Shown: positions 1-11,772, numbered from the stretch's first letter. The stretch is DNA of 49,511 nucleotides from Candidatus Nanopelagicaceae bacterium (GCA_009691185.1 SHVD01000001.1:1-49511); one strand, 5' to 3'. Notes: generated from the sequence alone by a model not told the origin. Translations and numbers: made by a program.

Positions 1-617
1 AAAAATGATTCCAGTAAATAAGAACCTAATCTCACCGCGGGTGAAGCTAGTTCATTAGAGTTCATAGAGTTGGGTGTGTCACTTGGAGCATTCATTACAG
101 AAGTCGATCTAGTTCGCATAGTATTTTCAAAACTTAGAGTCTTACTAGGCGAAGTTGTTGGAATAACATGTGAAGTAGTTCTTGTTGATGCTATTGAAAT
201 AAATAATAAAATTGATCCAGTAATACTGGCTAAATTAGCTAAATCTAATAAAATTGAAGTGGCTGTAACAGGCCAAACGAAAGCACTTGTTGGTAGTATA
301 AAAGTGGACATCCGTCCCAAAGTCTTAAAAATACCTTCTGACCACCAACTCCAATGGAAGGCATAAAAAATACTGGCGATAATATTTAGCACAAAATAAG
401 ATCCAACAACCGCAAATAGTGGAACTTCAAACCTTAACAAAAGTGATAACACACCTGCGGCAACTAACAGAATTACACAAAGGGTGTTAAAGATCAAAGT
501 GTCGTCTAGTACTGAGGCGCCGTATTCATTAAATGCTAACACCATACTTATTACTACAAAAAATGCACTTACAAGAAATAAAATGCCCGATATTTTTTTA
601 AAGATTGACAATTTCAT
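1..617 (-). CDS. Membrane protein, probable RDD-family domain at its C-terminus (runs off the window edge)
   Basis: Hand translation: ATG at 617 with GGAGG upstream (621-626), open to position 1. Several hydrophobic helices, then LASPAVRLGSYLLE, which resembles the start of an RDD domain. Not in the ORF track because there is no stop in the window. Confidence 0.6.
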   Translation of the reverse strand, partial: MKLSIFKKISGILFLVSAFFVVISMVLAFNEYGASVLDDTLIFNTLCVILLVAAGVLSLLLRFEVPLFAVVGSYFVLNIIASIFYAFHWSWWSEGIFKTLGRMSTFILPTSAFVWPVTATSILLDLANLASITGSILLFISIASTRTTSHVIPTTSPSKTLSFENTMRTRSTSVMNAPSDTPNSMNSNELASPAVRLGSYLLESF

Positions 618-789
618 AAAGCCTCCACTGAGAGTAATTATGCATTTTTCTCCAAGTCAACGTACCAACTTGGAAGGTCTAATCTAGGTGGTTCAAAAGC
701 GGCAAGCCCTGGAGTAATTGATTTCGAACGAGCTCTTAATATATAAAGAGCACGCTCAGATTTAATAACCCTGGGTCAAATGCCCAACT

Positions 790-809
790 AATTCCTTTTA
801 AAAGGAATT
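790..809 (-). terminator. Perfect 20-bp palindrome just after the stop of 811-1005; possible terminator
   Basis: aattccttttaaaaggaatt. Confidence 0.4.
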
Positions 810-810
810 T

Positions 811-1005
811 TTATACTGAACAACTCATATCTGAACCACAACACATTGGAGATTTTATTTTTCCTTCACATTGTGGGCAGCGAGAGATTTGAACTTTACT
901 TCCATCTGCAAGAGCGAGGGAATCGTTAACAAGTGGTTTGTTGCACTTGGCACAACTCGCATTGACTGACATTTCGCACTTCGCACAAGAATAAGTAGCA
1001 ATCAT
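811..1005 (-). CDS. Small Cys-rich, probable metal-binding protein
   Basis: 64 aa with CAKC, CAKC, CPQC and CC motifs. Confidence 0.7.
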   Translation of the reverse strand: MIATYSCAKCEMSVNASCAKCNKPLVNDSLALADGSKVQISRCPQCEGKIKSPMCCGSDMSCSV

Positions 1006-1130
1006 TCTTCGTTTCCTAGTTCTACTATTAAATAAGCCAATTACTTGGCTTTATCTACTTAGAGCACAGAAAGAATATCAATTAGTAGGACAAAAAATCT
1101 AGTAAATAAAATTAATTTCTGCAATACTTA

Positions 1131-1280
1131 CTGTTGAAGGACAAGTTGGTAGAGCACGGTGACTCACTGAGAATGCGTAAGCAGGCTCTGTGAGGCTGTG
1201 TAGCAATGCTTGAGCGTGAGCGAGAGATTGCTATACGACTCTTAATCACCGGGTCGGGGGTTCGAGTCCCTCACAACCCA
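1131..1280 (+). pseudogene. Decayed tRNA-Lys(CTT) interrupted in the anticodon loop
   Basis: D-loop AGTTGGTAGAGC; anticodon arm GGTGA-CTCTTAA-TCACC split by an insertion; intact GGGGG-TTCGAGT-CCCTC-ACAACCCA. The 5' acceptor strand has decayed (CTGTTGA, only GTTG pairs). Confidence 0.8.
1161..1241 (+). mobile_element. 71-nt two-hairpin insertion flanked by a GACTC direct repeat (76 nt added in total)
   Basis: GACTC at 1161-1165 and 1237-1241; hairpins capped by GTAA and GTGA tetraloops. Confidence 0.55.
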
Positions 1281-1281
1281 C
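1257..1281 (+). repeat. 25-bp att-like core (tRNA-Lys 3' end), copy 1 of 5
   Basis: ggggttcgagtccctcacaacccac, identical at 2627, 3479, 4970 and 6585. Confidence 0.95.
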
Positions 1282-1326
1282 TTATATAAGTGAATCCGAG
1301 ATCTTTATACAAACCATGGATAAATA

Positions 1327-2463
1327 TTAACTTCGCGGAATTCCTAAAACTGGGCGTACCTCTTCAAACATTGTGTAAAAATCAGTTAATTCAACCCCAG
1401 TTGCAGTTTTAAATGAATCTGCAAAGTTCTTCTTCTTACCTAGATTCTTATAAACTTCCATGAATTTTTCGATTCCAACATTAGCTACTAAGAACTCAGT
1501 TGCGATCGCACCAATTCCGTATGGATCGATAGCGTCGGGGCTGCCAGTATTTTTTGTTGCTTCCGATAGTAGATGTGATTTAGTTGAAGGATGATTAGAA
1601 CGCATAACAGCAAATTCCCTGCCTTCAGTAGTATAACTAGCCCATCCTAAGTAACTTGCGGTTTGTAATCCTATAAAAGTTGCCGGACCTTCCCAAAACC
1701 ATTGTGGAGCTATTCCTAAGCCATCTGGACTTGGAACACCACCTGATATCCGCTCTTGAACAGCATGGAAAAACTCATGTCCAGCCATCTGCATCATTCC
1801 CAATTTATCATTCACTAGTAAGTTATTTCTTGTTACTACACCCGAGTTATAAGTATTAGTTGTCGAACCACCGAATCCCGGTGCTCCTTCAGCAAAAGCT
1901 CTGCCACGATCATTTTTTGCCTCATTTTCACTATAGCCATTTTCGATATAAGTTTTTTCCACCCATGCACGATCAATACCAATCACTTCTAAAAATGGTT
2001 TACTTAATTTTGGATAATCAAATGCCTTTGCGACTAGATTCGCTCCATCTTTAACCCAGCCGACTAAGGTTTGATCAGCACCATCTTGGGCAGCAATTTT
2101 AATTACAGTGTCTTTACTTCTAGTTACCGCCACATAGGCTTTAAATTTATCAGTTGCAGCGGTCACAACAGAAGATGAAGAGGTTGGTTTAACCCAACTG
2201 TATTTTTCCCAAAGCGTTGCATAATTAGCTGCGGTAGTTGGTGTAGTGGCAGGAGTTGGGTTTGAAGCAGCAACTGCTACGCCCTTGTTCCAAACTAACT
2301 TCTTTCCAGATTTAACACATGTATAGGTTTTGCTAGCGGCAACTGATTTAATACCTGCCTTAGAACAAGTACCTCCTACTTTGACTGCAGCATTAACAGG
2401 TATTAAAGGGAGGGATAAGAAAAGAGAAAGTATTGGTAAGAAAGCAATTAGCCTCTTATTCAT
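1327..2463 (-). CDS. Secreted Zn-metallopeptidase-like protein (gluzincin-type), cassette 1
   Basis: Start reassigned to MNKRLIAF (2463) by comparison with paralogs; signal peptide; HEFFH plus downstream WFWEG motif. Confidence 0.8.
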   Translation of the reverse strand: MNKRLIAFLPILSLFLSLPLIPVNAAVKVGGTCSKAGIKSVAASKTYTCVKSGKKLVWNKGVAVAASNPTPATTPTTAANYATLWEKYSWVKPTSSSSVVTAATDKFKAYVAVTRSKDTVIKIAAQDGADQTLVGWVKDGANLVAKAFDYPKLSKPFLEVIGIDRAWVEKTYIENGYSENEAKNDRGRAFAEGAPGFGGSTTNTYNSGVVTRNNLLVNDKLGMMQMAGHEFFHAVQERISGGVPSPDGLGIAPQWFWEGPATFIGLQTASYLGWASYTTEGREFAVMRSNHPSTKSHLLSEATKNTGSPDAIDPYGIGAIATEFLVANVGIEKFMEVYKNLGKKKNFADSFKTATGVELTDFYTMFEEVRPVLGIPRS

Positions 2464-2469
2464 CTTTAT

Positions 2470-2498
2470 ACCATAAACCTTATATTTAGTTAATACAA
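2470..2498 (-). promoter_or_regulatory. Sigma70-type promoter, leaderless
   Basis: TTGTAT-N17-TATGGT-N6-ATG, conserved in cassettes 3 and 4. Confidence 0.6.
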
Positions 2499-2517
2499 AG
2501 GGGGTAGCCCAATCTGA

Positions 2518-2651
2518 CCTAAATCTGTTCAAAATCTAGTAAATGTCAGACCACATCTCTACTATGGGAGATAGTTCAAGATCGGTTACATCAATATGTG
2601 GACCATGTGAGTACATAACCCCTATTGGGGTTCGAGTCCCTCACAACCCAC
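2518..2651 (+). repeat. 134-bp cassette-end module A (109-bp arm plus 25-bp tRNA core)
   Basis: cctaaatctgttc...ccctcacaacccac; here followed by CA, giving a CCA end. Confidence 0.95.
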
Positions 2652-2840
2652 CACAGTTTAAGCGTGAAAATTATCTGAATCTATTTAATTGTGCCTTGCT
2701 ATTAAGTTTATCTAACACTTGTCTAACACTCGCCATAGTTCGCAGTAGTCCGCTACGCATGATTACCTAATCAGCGCACACCAAAACACGCCTACAAATA
2801 AATTAACGCGGTCTCCCAGTCATCGCAGTGGGTGAAGTAA

Positions 2841-3299
2841 CTACTTACTTGGCGTAAGGCGCGGGAAAATTGCTGGAACCCGAGCTTTGTATTCGGCATA
2901 ACCTTTGTACTTTGCGCTCAGCATTACTTCTTCCCAACGCAATTTATATGTAAGTAAAATAACCAGGGCCAACCAAAGCAGGATCTGGCTCCAAACCCCG
3001 CTAGAAAGCACAAGTCCAAGGGTGGCTGCAAGTAAACCGGTATATATAGGGTGACGAACGAGGTTGTAGATCCCAGTTGTTACTAATTTGCTGTCTTGAT
3101 TTGGAACTGGATTAGCCGTTAGCGACTTACCTAGTCCACTAAATCCAATGAATATAATAATTACGCCTACTCCGATTAGGAATATCCCGGTAATCGTGGC
3201 CCAACTTTGCGCCTGGGTATCATCTGGAAAAATTACCAGCGCAATTATTAGCGCAAATTGAAGGGCTACTATCATTCGACCTTTTCGCAGATCATCCAC
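2841..3299 (-). CDS. Isoprenylcysteine carboxyl methyltransferase (ICMT/PEMT) family membrane protein, cassette 2
   Basis: LVTTGIYNLVRHPIY, EE and YKARVP motifs; start uncertain (GTG 3299 follows a TAAAAT -10; alternatives 3329 and 3275). Confidence 0.85.
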   Translation of the reverse strand: MDDLRKGRMIVALQFALIIALVIFPDDTQAQSWATITGIFLIGVGVIIIFIGFSGLGKSLTANPVPNQDSKLVTTGIYNLVRHPIYTGLLAATLGLVLSSGVWSQILLWLALVILLTYKLRWEEVMLSAKYKGYAEYKARVPAIFPRLTPSK

Positions 3300-3369
3300 T
3301 CTGCAAATTTTACTAGACTTTAATGACATTAACCTCTAGGTATGGGCAAACGCATCATGGCAAATCCAT

Positions 3370-3503
3370 CCTAAATCTGTTCAAAATCTAGTAAATGTCA
3401 GACCACATCCCTACTATGAGAGATAGTTCAAGATCGGTTACATCCATATGTGGACCATGTGAGTACATAACCCCTATTGGGGTTCGAGTCCCTCACAACC
3501 CAC
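3370..3503 (+). repeat. 134-bp cassette-end module B
   Basis: 3 mismatches to module A by hand count. Confidence 0.95.
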
Positions 3504-3513
3504 AGTCAATAAA

Positions 3514-4803
3514 TTAAGATTTAATTATTTCTACTGTATCTCCAGAATCATCTGATTTAGTAACTTTAATTGTTACACCTTCAGTAGTTACAGATTCACC
3601 TAATGCTCTAGGTGCCTTTAAATAACGAGGATCACTGCTTACATCAGATGGAAATACCTTTACCGGACCTTGACCAGATTGAATTGACGAGTCAACTACA
3701 TAAATTAACGCTCCAGATTTTGCGATATTTTTATCTATACCGATCGCTCTTCTGCTTTCAATTACAACAGCCTTGGTTCTAGATATTGGAATAATCACAG
3801 CTTTAACTCCACCAGAAGTTTGAACTGGTGAGATTAATTCAGTCGATTTAGCATCCTTTAAACACTTAATTTGAGAGTCAGCGATCCAACCTAAATTCCA
3901 TCTTTCAAATGCTAATAAACTTGGTGCATTGCTCTCGTAACTGCTTAAGCCCATATAACTAAACTCACCGGTGTATCTTAAACCATCATAACGATTGGCT
4001 GGATTGCTTTGCGTAAATGCATATAGATCTACCAACCCTAAGGTGTGAGAAACCTCGTGATCTAACCAGATTGATTTCCAATTATTTAGATCATATGCCG
4101 AAGTAGCACCATTAGAAATGTATTTACCATCAAGAGTTATTCCACTCTTTCTAATTGCTGAAAACGCAGGGCCGGAGTCTCCCACTCCCTTTGCATCTGG
4201 ATTAGCTAAAATAATTAAACTATCAGTCTTACTGAAATTAACATCAGCATCAGCTAATTTTGCTGCCTCAGTGATGTAGTCACGATGTTTATCAAATGTC
4301 CAACCACCTTTAACATAATTACTTGAGTTTTTACTCATGCGATACCACTTTAACTGTGGCTTGAATGTGTAACTTAACTTTCCATAAGACATCTCTTTAA
4401 ATACATCAGCAGCAGGGGATATCCGAGCAAATGCATCTGCAGGAGTCATAGTTGCTGGGGCATCTGGAAAATCAACCATTACAACAGTTGCAATTACATC
4501 TCCAGTTGATTTTAATCTTTCATCAATCCGTGGCCAGCCTCCGATCGATACATCACCTAGGCCATCAGCGACCGGTAATTTGCAATCAGCTAATAAATCA
4601 ACAGCTACTACTGCTTTGACACCCTTATCCCATACCAGCTTCTTGCCAGACTTTATGCATGTATAAGTCTTTCCGGATGCTACTGATGTTATTCCGGCAC
4701 TAGTGCATGCCCCACCTGCTTTAACGGCCGCATAAACTGGGAATAAAGGTAAGGATATTGAAAGAGAAAGTATTGTTAAGAAAGCAATTAGCCTCTTATT
4801 CAT
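3514..4803 (-). CDS. Secreted M6-family-like metalloprotease, cassette 3
   Basis: Shared signal peptide and N-domain; VDFPD and HEVSHTLGLVDLY motifs. Confidence 0.8.
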   Translation of the reverse strand: MNKRLIAFLTILSLSISLPLFPVYAAVKAGGACTSAGITSVASGKTYTCIKSGKKLVWDKGVKAVVAVDLLADCKLPVADGLGDVSIGGWPRIDERLKSTGDVIATVVMVDFPDAPATMTPADAFARISPAADVFKEMSYGKLSYTFKPQLKWYRMSKNSSNYVKGGWTFDKHRDYITEAAKLADADVNFSKTDSLIILANPDAKGVGDSGPAFSAIRKSGITLDGKYISNGATSAYDLNNWKSIWLDHEVSHTLGLVDLYAFTQSNPANRYDGLRYTGEFSYMGLSSYESNAPSLLAFERWNLGWIADSQIKCLKDAKSTELISPVQTSGGVKAVIIPISRTKAVVIESRRAIGIDKNIAKSGALIYVVDSSIQSGQGPVKVFPSDVSSDPRYLKAPRALGESVTTEGVTIKVTKSDDSGDTVEIIKS

Positions 4804-4809
4804 CTATAG

Positions 4810-4838
4810 ACCGTAAACCTTATATTTAGTTAATACAA
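4810..4838 (-). promoter_or_regulatory. Sigma70-type promoter, leaderless
   Basis: TTGTAT-N17-TACGGT-N6-ATG. Confidence 0.6.
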
Positions 4839-4860
4839 CGGGTTTAGCCCACCAATATGA

Positions 4861-4994
4861 CCTAAATCTGTTCAAAATCTAGTAAATGTCAGACCACATC
4901 TCTACTATGGGAGATAGTTCAAGATCGGTTACATCAACATGTGGACCATGTGAGTACATAACCCATATTGGGGTTCGAGTCCCTCACAACCCAC
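4861..4994 (+). repeat. 134-bp cassette-end module C
   Basis: 2 mismatches to module A by hand count. Confidence 0.95.
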
Positions 4995-5113
4995 TTATAT
5001 AAGTGAATCCGAGATCTTTATACAAAACATGGATGAATATTAACTTCGCGGAATTCCTAAAACTGGACGTACCTCTTCACAAATTGTATAAGAATCGGTT
5101 AATTCAACCCCAG
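4995..5113 (-). pseudogene. Duplicate of 1282-1400, including a remnant of the cassette-1 gene C-terminus
   Basis: 8 mismatches in 119 bp; encodes GVELTDSYTICEEVRPVLGIPRS* versus GVELTDFYTMFEEVRPVLGIPRS*. Confidence 0.85.
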
Positions 5114-5136
5114 AATGCTCTACTTCATGGCGATGG

Positions 5137-6417
5137 TCATGAGACACGACGATCTCCTTCTAAACTCCATTCAATATATGGTTTGACCTCGTTAAGAAAA
5201 TCCTCGACAGATAGTCCAAAAACTGTTTGGAATGCCTCTTTACTTGCAGCAACCCGCGCCAAATCTTTAGTTAAGTCTTTTGGGTTTAAACTATTGATCG
5301 CTACACTCCAAAAGCTCAACGTTCTCTCAAGACCATACTTGGCTAACAAATATTCATACATCACAGCACCTATCGAATAGTCTTCACCAGATGCATTAAA
5401 TTCTTCATAAGATTTCTTCCACGCCCCATTATTTGCACGTATAAATCCCCGTTTATCTTCACCATAATTTGTCCATATACCATCGGCAGTTAAGAGGTAG
5501 CTCATATATGTAGCCGAGCCTTCCACCATCCATAATGGACCTGTCACTTTAGGAAGTTTTACTGCCTCCTTGGAATCCAACTTGAAACTGGTGTAAATCC
5601 ATTGAATTGCATGGAAAGCTTCATGGATAAGGACGTCTCGTTCCAAATATTTTTCATCGCAATTCGACAGGGCGACCATGCCATATCCAGTACCTAAAAC
5701 AGAGAGGCCTGCGCCTGCGCCTCTATAGTTTGTATAGTCAGCTCCGCGTGCTGCATCAAGAATTAACCCACCCTCGGGTGTGGTTTCACACTTACTTGAG
5801 ACTTGATACATTTTTGAAATCATTAATACGTCCGAAGCTTTTTTTAATACTTGTTCACAAGCCCACTCTTTACTGCTCCCAAAAATATAGATATGTGCCT
5901 TACTATTATTTGGAATCATTGGTGAGTAATACTTCTTCATGATTTCAATCTGTTCAGAATAAAATTTGCGCTTGAGTTCAGTTGTTGTAGGATCCCAGTA
6001 TATTACGAATGGATTATGCACGCTCCCTTTTTGATTTAGAATCACATTCTTTGCAAGGGCTCCAATGAGAGGATAATCAGCGCTCTTAATTGGGTCAACG
6101 CTCTGAAATGGTGCAGCTTTCTTTTTAACTGGAGTTGGAGTTGGTGCAGCTTTCTTTTTAATTGGAGGGTCACAACGGTCAGTTGATACATCGTTTAACA
6201 TCCAAAGTAACCGCGTCCCCACAACTTTTGCACTTTTACCCACACCCTGAAGAATCTCGACTTTGGTACACGTATAGGACTTACCATCTTTTCCAACAGC
6301 TGTAATACCTGCCTTAGAACAAGTGCCTCCTGCTTTAACTTCAGCATTAGCAGGTATTAAAGGGAGGGACAGGAAAAGAGAAAGTATTGGTAAGAAAGTA
6401 ATTAGCTTCTTATTCAT
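5137..6417 (-). CDS. Secreted Zn-metallopeptidase-like protein (gluzincin-type), cassette 4
   Basis: Shared signal peptide; HEAFH plus WMVEG motif; duplicated KKKAAP linker. Confidence 0.8.
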   Translation of the reverse strand: MNKKLITFLPILSLFLSLPLIPANAEVKAGGTCSKAGITAVGKDGKSYTCTKVEILQGVGKSAKVVGTRLLWMLNDVSTDRCDPPIKKKAAPTPTPVKKKAAPFQSVDPIKSADYPLIGALAKNVILNQKGSVHNPFVIYWDPTTTELKRKFYSEQIEIMKKYYSPMIPNNSKAHIYIFGSSKEWACEQVLKKASDVLMISKMYQVSSKCETTPEGGLILDAARGADYTNYRGAGAGLSVLGTGYGMVALSNCDEKYLERDVLIHEAFHAIQWIYTSFKLDSKEAVKLPKVTGPLWMVEGSATYMSYLLTADGIWTNYGEDKRGFIRANNGAWKKSYEEFNASGEDYSIGAVMYEYLLAKYGLERTLSFWSVAINSLNPKDLTKDLARVAASKEAFQTVFGLSVEDFLNEVKPYIEWSLEGDRRVS

Positions 6418-6423
6418 CTGTAG

Positions 6424-6452
6424 ACCATAAACCTTATATTTAGTTAATACAA
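6424..6452 (-). promoter_or_regulatory. Sigma70-type promoter, leaderless
   Basis: TTGTAT-N17-TATGGT-N6-ATG. Confidence 0.6.
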
Positions 6453-6475
6453 CGGGTTGTAGCCCCCCTATATGA

Positions 6476-6609
6476 CCTAAATCTGTTCGATATCTAGTAA
6501 TTGTCAGACCCCATCCCTAATATGGGTTGTGGATCAAGATCGGTTACATCAATATGTGGACCATGAGAGTACATAACCCCTATTGGGGTTCGAGTCCCTC
6601 ACAACCCAC
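6476..6609 (+). repeat. 134-bp cassette-end module D (most diverged)
   Basis: 12 mismatches to module A, all in the arm; core identical. Confidence 0.9.
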
Positions 6610-6841
6610 GAACAGATTTTAAAGTACTCAATTTATGACCTACAACAGTTGTAGTTAGCTCTCCTGCCTTTATTAATCTTATTAAGGCTGCAGGATCCTG
6701 GGCTGAAGTCTTAAGGGTCAAAGATGATTTTGGTACTTTTAAATTACCGCCCCTGGCGATTTTAATAATTTTGCCACTTGCACTGCCCCCGCGATGATTC
6801 CAGGTGACAAGTGAGCCTACTCTCAATATTGATTTACTCAT
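6599..6841 (-). CDS. Small basic DUF2945/HVA1-like (Tudor-fold) protein
   Basis: VGSLVTWN..GG.A.GKI...DP...GHK.S.L pattern; stop codon lies inside the att core. Confidence 0.6.
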   Translation of the reverse strand: MSKSILRVGSLVTWNHRGGSASGKIIKIARGGNLKVPKSSLTLKTSAQDPAALIRLIKAGELTTTVVGHKLSTLKSVRGL

Positions 6842-9450: not shown

Positions 9451-10323
9451 CTATTTATTGAATCTATCTAAGGATTTTTCATACTCATAGTAATTAATGC
9501 TTTTATATAACTCATCTCGAGTTTGCATCTTATCTACCACACCTTTTTGGGTGCCATTTGCTTTGATACTTTGATAAACCTCAAGTGCTGCCTTATTCAT
9601 CGCTCTAAAGGCAGAGAGCGGATAAAGCGCCATCGCTACCTTGGCACTTTTTAACTCCTGGGTGGTAAACATTGGAGTTAATCCAAACTCGGTGATATTT
9701 GCCAGGATTGGCACCCCAACCTCATCAGCAAATCTTTGATAGATCTTTAAATCATCAACAGCTTCGACAAATAACATCTGCGCCCCAGCCTTTACATAAG
9801 CCTTAGCGCGATCAATTGCTGCATCCACACCCTCTGATGCGAGCGCGTCAGTTCTTGCCATAATCACAAATGAGTTATCACCCTTGGCACTTACCGCAGC
9901 ACTTATTCGATCAACCATCTCCTGCTTTGAAACTAACTCTTTATTTGGCCGGTGGCCACATCTTTTAGCGCCAACCTGATCTTCAATATGAGCAGCTGCT
10001 GCTCCTGCTGCAATGAGGGAGGTAATAGTGCGGGTGATATTAAAGGCAGATGGACCAAAGCCGGTATCAATATCTACTAAGAGTGGCAGCTTGGTTACAT
10101 TAACAATTCTTCGCACATCAGTTAAAACATCCTCTAAATTAGTAATACCAAGATCTGGCACACCCAATGATCCTGCTGCTACCCCACCACCAGATAAATA
10201 GATCGCTTTATAGCCAGATTGCTCAGCCAGAAGTGCGTGGTTGGCATTTATGACCCCAACAATTTGCAATGGGGCTTCCTCTTTCACTGCTTTTCTAAAT
10301 AGATCCCCAGCTTGTGCTATCAC
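9451..10323 (-). CDS. prpB: 2-methylisocitrate lyase
   Basis: KRCGH catalytic motif, DIDTGFG; probable GTG start at 10323. Confidence 0.95.
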
Positions 10324-10419
10324 ATCTCTTAATCTATCACTTGCTGGAAAAAAACAATATTTGGCACTTTTTTCTACCTTAGTAATTGACATTTGGCGCA
10401 ACTTCGATAACTTAACTCC

Positions 10420-11772
10420 ATGCATGCAGTGGTAATTGGCGCAGGTGTGATTGGCTCATCAATTGCATTGCAATTAAGACGTCTTGGTCATGATGTCACA
10501 GTGGTGGAGCGCAACTCAGCAGCTGGTATGGGTTCAACCAGCGCGTCGAGTGCGGTGGTTAGATTTAATTACTCAACCTTTGACGCAGTTGCACTCTCCT
10601 GGGAGTCCTACTTTTTATGGAAAGAGTTTAAAGAGTTAATCGATGGCACAGATGGATACGCAAAGAATTCATTAAGTAATTCTCAAGAACATTACGCCCA
10701 CCTAGAAGATCGTGGTTATGTGATGTTGGATGTACCAGTACTTTCTAATGAAAAGACGATGGCCTTATTTGACCAAGCAGGAATTCCTTATGAAATCTGG
10801 GATTCAAAGCAACTAAAGATTGGCATGCCAGGAATAGATGCTGGTAGGTACTGGCCAAACAAACCAGTTAAGTCAGATGAGTTTTGGGATGAGGCAAATC
10901 AGGAGTTAGGCGCAATATTTTCTAAGCATGGCGGCTATGTCTCAGACCCCTTACTTGCTGCGCAAAACTTTGCGGTGGCAGCAAAGCGTGAGGGAGTTAA
11001 TTTTAAGTTTCGAAAAGTTGTGGTTGGTATTGAAAAGAATCTAGGAAGAGTTTCAGGTGTTGCGGTAAGTGATTTTGATTCCCAAAGTAAAAAGCCATTA
11101 GATACCGGCCATGAAGTAATTGCTGCTGATGTAGTGATTAATGTGGCAGGACCTTGGTCTACTTTGATAAATCAAATGGCAGGTGCTGGTAGTGATTTCA
11201 CTATAGAGTTAAAGCCACTTCGGGCTGAGGTGCACCAGATATCAACTCCAAAAGATATTTTGCCAGGTCCAATCATGGGAGATTTAGATCTTGGCACCTA
11301 TGTTAGATCTGGCCCTGGTGGAATCACTTTGGTGGGCGGAACAGAGCCAGAGTGTGATGAGCTTGAGTGGGTTACACCAGATAAGGTCGATGAGGTAAAC
11401 ATGACAAGAACTGTTGCGGTTTTTGAATCTCAAACATATCGATTTGCTAGAAGATTTCCAGCTGCGCAAATCCCGTCCACTCCAGTTGGTGTAGTTGGTG
11501 TTTATGATGTTTCATCTGATTGGACGCCAATCTATGACAAAACTGATGTGCCAGGGTTTTATGTGGCGATAGGAACTAGTGGAAATCAATTTAAAAACGC
11601 CCCTGGTGCTGGTTTAATCATGGCCCACTTAATTACCCAGGTGGAAAAAGGTGCTGATCATGACAGTGAGCCAGTGGTTTATCAATGCACGAAGAGTAAG
11701 AGTGTGATTAATTTAGGCACATTTTCTAGAAAGCGCGCCCGTAACTTAACTAGCGGAACGGTAATGGGTTAA
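10420..11772 (+). CDS. FAD-dependent oxidoreductase (DAO / sarcosine oxidase beta-like)
   Basis: GAGVIG dinucleotide-binding motif; [12 protein letters not shown] and [11 protein letters not shown]. Confidence 0.85.

Follow-up and report, generated by a model that had tools for sequence, protein, structure and literature searches.

Tandem accretion of integrase-less units with related att ends at a single chromosomal target has been described for the ICESt1/ICESt3 family, whose cis-mobilizable elements (CIMEs) are attributed to deletion (PMC5704250). Accretion units lacking an integrase have also been proposed for Dehalococcoides, whose ssrA islands stand in tandem behind the tmRNA end with a conserved motif upstream of their repeats, about half of them without an integration module (PMC3146451). 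Strain-variable cassettes marked by tRNA 3'-end repeats make up additive islands in Ca. Actinomarinales (PMC7771536), at tRNA-Lys(ctt) in Methylopumilus (PMC10872708) and in GI2-4 of Planktophila (PMC12817590). Here we analyze a 49,511-nt stretch from a Candidatus Nanopelagicaceae bacterium (GCA_009691185.1, SHVD01000001.1:1-49511; the window throughout), the left part of which is an array of one-gene units separated by copies of the tRNA-Lys 3' end, each unit being closed by the same conserved module.

Nanopelagicales rank among the most abundant bacteria of lakes, and to our knowledge few mobile elements are known from them. Their tRNA-flanked islands have so far been without a mechanism, for which a cognate integrase, a docking module and a candidate DNA-damage switch can now be named. 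Our preferred reading, which we hold to be probable, is that the units are integrase-less one-gene cassettes stacked at tRNA-Lys(CTT) and excised and inserted in trans, at the core formed by the tRNA 3' end, by an integrase (IntA) that is encoded by helper elements with the same right end.

Structure of the array

Five exact copies of a 25-mer matching the T-arm and acceptor 3' end of tRNA-Lys (the core) lie on the + strand at 1257..1281, 2627..2651, 3479-3503, 4970-4994 and 6585-6609, and delimit units 1-4, which measure 1370, 852, 1491 and 1615 bp from core to core and contain a single minus-strand gene each. All four units end in a gap-free 134-bp module on the + strand, made up of a 109-bp arm and the 25-bp core, with the arms at 2518..2626 (module 1, type A1), 3370-3478 (module 2, 3370..3503), 4861-4969 (module 3, 4861..4994) and 6476-6584 (module 4, 6476..6609); the arm thus precedes the last four cores and not the core at 1257. 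The modules are 120-132/134 identical in pairwise comparison and 122-132/134 identical to the first copy (BLAST, E 1e-49 or better), and the arms alone are 95-107/109 identical. The initial annotation, made by a model from the sequence alone, had placed the arm's edge at 2518; the shared sequence reaches about 10 bp further left, to about 2508. Its coordinates and lengths for the four one-gene units were reproduced, as was its account of one gap-free module at each unit end.

The cargo genes, all on the minus strand, are of two unrelated kinds. Units 1, 3 and 4 encode secreted HExxH metallopeptidase-like proteins with a common N-terminus, the signal-peptide and N-terminal regions being 69-78% alike, namely a 378-aa protein with a weak flagellinolysin match (E 3e-7) in unit 1 (1327..2463), a 429-aa M6-like protein in unit 3 (3514..4803; TIGR03296, E 3e-30, 106 bits, below the cut-off of 110.8) and a 426-aa protein in unit 4 (5137..6417). 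A predicted leaderless promoter is common to the three genes, reading TTGTAT-17-TATGGT-6-ATG in unit 1. Unit 2 encodes an ICMT/PEMT-family methyltransferase (2841..3329) and, as had been noticed before, has nothing but the module in common with the other units. Unit 4 is a mosaic, since its start (4995..5113, + strand) is 94% like that of unit 1 and keeps a remnant of the 3' end of the unit-1 gene; module 4 is likewise a hybrid, A2-type in its left part and A1-type in its right part. Beyond the last core, the chromosomal flank begins with a Hva1/TUDOR-like gene (6599..6841, minus strand), which terminates within that core, so that 6599-6609 supplies its last codons.

No integrase family was found among the array ORFs, and in the host assembly (1.08 Mb, 81% complete) the only PF00589 genes are XerC- and XerD-like, and no match to PF07508 (large serine recombinase) was obtained. 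The earlier statement that integrase, transposase and replication genes are missing therefore stands in its integrase part; transposases were not searched genome-wide.

Helper elements with the same right end

The initial annotation had postulated a recombinase encoded outside the array, and a candidate was found in relatives, in units with the same right end as those of the window. IntA, a tyrosine integrase of about 289 aa, is present at full length as the first gene of 5 of 61 tRNA-Lys units that end in an A-type module (defined below). An independent search recovered it at full length in 10/301 family genomes; in nine of these it immediately follows tRNA-Lys(CTT), Val(TAC) or Val(GAC), and in the tenth it follows a Lys core. 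Wherever the right end of these elements is visible it is an A-family arm (6/6), the other four contigs stopping short, and the window modules are 117-128/134 identical to two helper ends. The catalytic residues R119, K153, H211, R214, H237 and Y247 are retained in 59/59 homologues, and 792 database relatives match at E 1e-10 or better. A structural model (pLDDT 85) consists of core-binding and catalytic domains only and aligns over its full length with arm-domain-deleted Tn1549 and lambda integrases; a single-sequence fold (pLDDT 42) was set aside.

Several units connect helpers with integrase-less forms. The unit at locus L058 equals the helper at L061 minus 2.4 kb that includes the integrase, with 89% identity over 4.4 kb, and by this alignment is a deletion derivative of a helper. 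Truncated IntA pieces occur in three further places, each within a unit, and two contigs of the host assembly (G000) carry a core and a helper left end from which the integrase gene is missing (C17, 209-382; C44, 400-558). Large sugar and amino-acid metabolism blocks follow the helper left end on C17 and C44, the latter with an A3 arm. Across nine helpers, integrase and arm divergence were correlated (Mantel rho 0.65, p 0.002).

All nine complete helpers (L054, L060, L061, L074, L165-L168, L171) carry a gene for a RimJ-like GNAT acetyltransferase, and some carry an HTH_36/replication-initiator-like gene. Several also contain restriction-modification, HNH or zinc-finger nuclease and HTH_36 genes. 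No conjugation family was found among the scanned helper proteins, nor were capsid, portal or terminase genes among the examined helpers. A second short integrase, IntB (22% identical to IntA), heads units with another end class, type B, in G001, G304 and G339, with a fragment in G045; three of the IntB cases were reached via the type-B sequence itself. An IntB relative lies at tRNA-Arg(TCT) in G047, and distant homologues (39-48%) are not placed beside a tRNA in the same manner.

Spread and rearrangement of the units

The arm was found behind other cargo and in other orders across relatives, as the initial annotation had anticipated. A 22-nt arm pattern retrieved 98 metagenome stretches, and a related pattern is present in 39/401 family genomes (2 hits for the reversed-pattern control), with module copies of 94-98% identity in G027, G048 and G057, which bear three genus labels. 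Ends at tRNA-Lys comprise A1 (the window type), A2 and A3, which have the same left half as A1, as well as B, C and plain 43-bp duplications. After removal of 14 duplicate loci, 74 complete tRNA-Lys units were available, a set enriched in A1 by the search pattern, of which 61 end in an A1-A3 module (median 1485 bp); 43 of these 61 hold one ORF of at least 100 aa, on the minus strand and facing the tRNA in 40 cases. The cargo is diverse (104 proteins in 71 families). In an arm-independent sample of 76 family genomes at least 99% complete, the core was present in 63, and a hand tally of 29 secondary ends gave 15 A, 4 B, 6 plain, 3 unclassified and 1 not fetched, with intact IntA in one unit against the 15 A-type ends.

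Number, order and content of the units differ among relatives, with junctions at the core, again as proposed initially. At loci with the window's distal flank, including the Hva1/TUDOR-like gene, L085 has one unit, L068 a different unit and G001 an IntB element. A unit encoding a TMEM175 protein measures 910-911 bp core to core at four loci (82-94% identity) with different neighbours, and a trypsin-like unit measures 1233-1249 bp at four loci; the two genes stand in opposite order in L259 versus L126, fused into one unit there. Homologues of unit 1 (88-92%) are preceded by the tRNA, an A1 end, an unclassified end or a B end. Parallel arrays with a related arm occur at tRNA-Val(TAC), with three near-identical ends in G027, and homologues of unit 3 (87-91%) lie in such arrays in G006 and G027. 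Many units lie next to a tRNA that is intact, or to an end of unrelated type, where no more than 19-44 bp are in common with the module. A fixed length with both neighbours changed is a stronger sign of a moved unit than a change of the left neighbour alone. The idea of non-autonomous one-gene cassettes with their own promoters agrees with these integrase-free units and with the predicted leaderless promoters of three window genes.

Some related loci depart from the common pattern. Type-C ends with both Lys and Val cores occur at L073, L107, L178, L037 and L270, and one unit (L175, G141) is closed by a second, complete allele of tRNA-Lys(CTT) that differs in its anticodon stem. At L049 (G021) and L074, behind tRNA-Val(TAC), secreted paralogues with the same N-terminal domain stand head to tail with no modules between them. 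A joint of 2464 to 1324 in all four RNA runs was considered as an excised circle and rejected, head-to-tail paralogues as in L049 fitting better, and in a terminal-repeat check of 78 metagenome loci every repeat was an array repeat. A viral origin of the modules was likewise rejected, with no IMG/VR matches. Contig depth in three DNA runs was lower for units 2-3 (e.g. 148, 136) than for unit 1 and the flank (184, 172), and about half for the sequence left of the first core; these depths do not give a share of cells and were not used as evidence. In RNA-library contigs, which are unstranded and possibly DNA, cargo homologues and the type-B insert were deeper than A arms, which we take as a hint only.

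A predicted PafBC-type promoter in the arm

All four window arms carry the motif TGTCAG-N10-TA-N3-T on the + strand, facing the core and 62 bp before it (2544..2565, 3396-3417, 4887-4908 and 6502-6523). It matches the published PafBC consensus, tGTCgg(N10)tA(N3)T (PMC8635444), and according to a review this promoter type extends to other Actinobacteria (PMC8223512). Among 129 distinct arm segments, two of them mis-collected or mis-assigned, the strict motif occurs in 87 and a loose form in 13. Over nine arm subfamilies, 6/7 motif columns are invariant compared with 1/15 other columns (Fisher p 0.0006), and the spacer drifts. The host has pafB and pafC beside tatC, and its PafB and PafC keep the DNA-contacting K5 and R8 and the R-R-K-R set at the published spacing, shifted by two. 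The motif also stands at a fixed place ahead of recA in 28/30 loci of the genus, and ahead of dinB in the host. We consider it rather probable that the arm motif is a working PafBC promoter; that it controls IntA is possible but on balance doubtful, and no such motif was found on the + strand of ten helper left ends (0/10 IntA ends).

As alternative contents of the module, a sigma-70 promoter and a terminator were sought and neither was found, and a structured RNA was rejected, the top strand of the whole A1 module folding no better than shuffles and having no Rfam match. Upstream of the ICMT gene, at 3307-3328 on the minus strand, TGTCA-N11-TAAAAT precedes a possible leaderless GTG at 3299, like the arm motif reversed. 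A strict PafBC-type motif is also present in the right end of an unrelated large-integrase element at tRNA-Lys (L318, G389; oriented 11451-11472).

Proposed mechanism and alternative explanations

Under the trans-acting helper model, crossing-over would take place within the 19-25-bp core, and the module would represent the helper's right end (attR arm). Cassettes would derive from helpers that lost internal sequence and exchanged their cargo, and would then be kept and spread at fixed length. Lacking an arm-binding domain, and with right flanks that vary among empty tRNA sites, IntA would accept any two cores as substrates, so that cassettes would need no left arm. The motif is likely to be a PafBC-activated DNA-damage promoter. 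In the integrated element it points outward; in a helper circle formed by excision it would be directed at the integrase gene, as it would at that of a helper lying next downstream. Transfer between cells would probably occur by transformation or by carriage in phages or vesicles. A second integrase family, IntB, uses the same tRNA and leaves the type-B end at 1136-1281. RecA-type recombination between arms could generate mosaic arms and move cargo between Lys and Val arrays. A wider version, in which freshwater Nanopelagicales have a stress-gated counterpart of the integron, is tentative, and we think it rather less likely than not: a lake-wide pool of self-expressing cassettes would be excised and captured upon DNA damage whenever a helper is in the cell, the shared end acting both as the docking site for a roaming arm-less integrase and as a PafBC promoter, and IntA/type A and IntB/type B pairs would serve the same and other tRNAs.

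Several observations weigh against this model. IntA was not found in the host assembly at its 81% completeness, and a helper left end is recognizable in only 3/56 integrase-less A-ended units and in none of the four window units, so that matched attL/attR pairs are mostly missing. The co-divergence of integrase and arm was no longer significant once four near-identical helpers were collapsed (rho 0.35, 61/720 permutations). A changed left neighbour alone is equally explained by insertion upstream. No vehicle was found, IMG/VR giving no match for three DNA patterns (including the arm and the B end) or for IntA, and no excised circle or excision junction was observed, four DNA and four RNA runs yielding no module-spanning joint, since their contigs break at the 134-bp repeat. 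As for the promoter, the motif was recognized post hoc and is absent from 29 of the 129 arm segments. Across the genome it is not enriched (10 strict hits, 4 of them in the array, against 2-14 for shifted spacers), it precedes only 2 of 19 scanned repair/replication ORFs, and a loose form also stands before some tRNA genes. A hairpin in the helper left end could moreover block read-through into the integrase.

The most serious rival is that the units are relic CIMEs, which entered as full helpers, lost their integrase and are immobile on their own, spreading only with an adjacent helper or by replacement of the whole island. The deletion derivative L058, the truncated IntA pieces in three units and the absence of the left arm from most units are what such decay would leave, and a three-step accretion of this kind has been published (PMC5704250). 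It accounts poorly for units that keep a fixed length at 82-94% identity between different neighbours on both sides, for the convergence of 43/61 units on a one-gene form with an intact arm, and for the 15 A-type ends against one with intact IntA in near-complete genomes; we therefore regard it as unlikely. The view that one gene and its flanks were simply duplicated in tandem and then diverged has in its favour the 69-78% similarity of the signal-peptide and N-terminal regions of units 1, 3 and 4, and is set against arms 87-98% identical around unrelated cargo, 71 cargo families, and an order and content that differ in relatives with the same flank. As the arm occurs behind other cargo and in other orders, it is refuted by the criterion that the initial annotation itself had set, and we give it next to no credence.

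Two further rivals concern the recombination itself. Shuffling could be independent of the integrase, which would only have seeded the repeats; in transformed DNA, RecA would find its homology in the modules of 134 bp and in the 233 bp that gene starts have in common, and cassettes would be added, dropped or swapped in this way. Consistent with this, 5/108 distinct modules, including module 4 of the window, are clear arm-subtype mosaics, the same cargo ends in A1, A2 or A3, homologues of unit 3 lie in tRNA-Val(TAC) arrays, the host has comEC and recA, and unit 4 is itself mosaic. In many units, on the other hand, the neighbour is a tRNA that is intact, or an end of unrelated type, with just 19-44 bp in common with the module. 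Homology of that length is too short for ordinary RecA exchange. Retention of the promoter motif would also go unexplained, and as the sole cause we judge RecA shuffling quite improbable; homologous recombination between arms, as the mosaics suggest, also contributes to reshaping units. The other rival is an attC-like, single-strand recombination. The module would form a hairpin in which the stretch preceding the core imitates the strand complementary to the tRNA 3' end, and the folded strand would be the substrate of a recombinase, as in integrons. The left flank and core do fold better than shuffles in A1 (2 and 4/1000), A3 (top strand, 19/1000) and type C (11/1000), but not in A2 (706/1000 top strand, 41 bottom). 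Taken as a whole, the module shows no unusual degree of structure (z -0.8, -2.0), the GTTRRRY/RYYYAAC boxes are absent, and IntA scores 29.6 bits on the integron-integrase model TIGR02249 against a cut-off of 265, which makes this a very remote prospect.

The first core belongs to a type-B unit end

The first core had been taken initially for the tRNA-Lys gene that anchors the array. This does not hold: ARAGORN found no tRNA in the window and no tRNA-Lys among the 28 tRNAs of the assembly, and the sequence at 1136..1281 (+ strand), which resembles tRNA-Lys(CTT) and has the tRNA 3' half, is missing the 5' acceptor strand, and its anticodon loop is interrupted by an insert of 76 nt (1166-1241). 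It is a type-B unit end; G021 has an intact tRNA-Lys(CTT) followed by a unit of 562 bp, and the type-B sequence that closes this unit lies 562 nt downstream of the tRNA. An intron-containing tRNA at 1131-1281 was rejected along with a plain tRNA-Lys, the acceptor stem being missing and the insert having no constant terminal G of a group I intron. The insert forms two GNRA-type hairpins. Type-B ends were noted at 1136-1281 in the window and at L017, L033, L076, L098, L113, L183 and L185-L187. Over ten copies, 15/39 pairs change on both sides, which 0/500 shuffles match; Rfam gave no match to the type-B end. An xAnnnT hexamer, judged by eye, lies 6-7 nt ahead of the type-B start in the collected copies, and in the window the predicted -10 box AATACT (1123..1128, + strand) lies 7 nt before the GAAGGAY start. 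Type-B sequence also occurs in RNA-library contigs of four studies. The type-B end is possibly an undescribed RNA of about 145 nt, or the structured leader of the IntB element.

Because 1136-1281 is a unit end, the array continues to the left past the contig. The preceding unit 0 is cut by the contig start (right part, 1..1135) and holds a partial membrane-protein ORF (1-617) and a 64-aa zinc-ribbon ORF (811-1005), both on the minus strand. Contig C4 of the host ends in pst genes, which in relatives precede orn-ppa-tRNA-Lys, so that the real tRNA-Lys and the proximal array fall in an assembly gap; C17 and C44 each start with another core. Within unit 0, at 739-790, contigs from several runs branch, and similar sequence lies near the start of C17. 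C4 also carries a mini-array at tRNA-Arg(TCT) (9737-11180, L312), in which an integrase-less unit of about 515 bp is followed by another of about 837 bp; the latter ends in a degenerate tRNA-Arg copy that starts GAAGGAC and lies behind a PafBC-like motif.

Comparison with known systems

The array was first described as integron-like, which holds as an analogy. As in an integron, one-gene cassettes are arrayed in tandem, each closed by a conserved site, in variable order, and recombination is possibly coupled to DNA damage; in integrons, LexA controls intI. The likeness ends with IntI, attC boxes and promoterless cassettes. No IntI-family integrase is encoded in the assembly, in which the left end of the array is unassembled, module 1 has no RYYYAAC or GTTRRRY box on either strand and no Rfam match, the site is a tRNA 3' end, and the cassette genes are oriented towards the tRNA (40/43) and bring promoters of their own.

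Similarity to CIMEs is closer. The window units contain no integrase or transfer genes and carry the right end of a related integrative element (117-128/134; 6/6 helpers). An attL-like left end is recognizable in 3/56 integrase-less units and at C17 and C44, the core itself being present and perhaps sufficient for an arm-less integrase. In contrast to CIMEs, most units here consist of a single gene that has its own promoter; they are more numerous than their helpers, keep a fixed length across hosts and mostly have no left arm, and the helpers lack conjugation genes and encode an arm-less integrase. With additive islands, which are known from streamlined bacteria of the same or related lineages, the locus shares tRNA 3'-end direct repeats between gene blocks and a number and content of units that vary at the same locus. 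The main texts of PMC7771536, PMC10872708 and PMC12817590 describe the short tRNA repeat only, with no arm, cognate integrase or promoter; the word "integrase" occurs 0, 1 and 0 times, respectively, in these main texts, supplements aside.

Other systems share single features. The Dehalococcoides ssrA islands differ in having a large serine integrase within a six-gene module, a 15-bp motif only and multi-gene islands (PMC3146451). Tycheposons of Prochlorococcus (bioRxiv 10.1101/2020.12.28.424599) are transient elements with tRNA-specific tyrosine integrases that likewise build additive islands in a streamlined genome, but they carry their own integrase and often replication genes, neither of which the window units have. 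The material they leave behind is described as having no clear boundaries, in contrast to the sharp limits of the present units. In ICEclc, an outward promoter at the element's end, Pcirc, comes to lie before the integrase gene on circularization (PMC5812530); Pcirc is described as a strong promoter of a conjugative element, in contrast to a PafBC-type motif retained on integrase-less units. Among 50,697 phage records, the annotated protein nearest to IntA is the similarly short integrase of the Streptomyces satellite phage MulchRoom (31% over 258 aa; OQ784832; PMC10690885), from which the examined helpers differ in having no capsid, portal or terminase genes; simple arm-less recombinases can integrate mobile elements.

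Additive islands with tRNA repeats are already published; the pairing with a helper, the PafBC-type promoter and a conserved arm with a cognate integrase were not found in the literature on such islands that we could consult, which covered little of the subscription journals and no supplements. If correct, the proposed mechanism would account for the exchange across genera of one-gene variants, among them secreted peptidases, channels and enzymes, and would provide a mobile element wired to PafBC instead of LexA. On present comparison, the system is best read as a CIME-like additive island and not as an integron, and it represents a further form of accretion at tRNA sites without constituting a class of its own.

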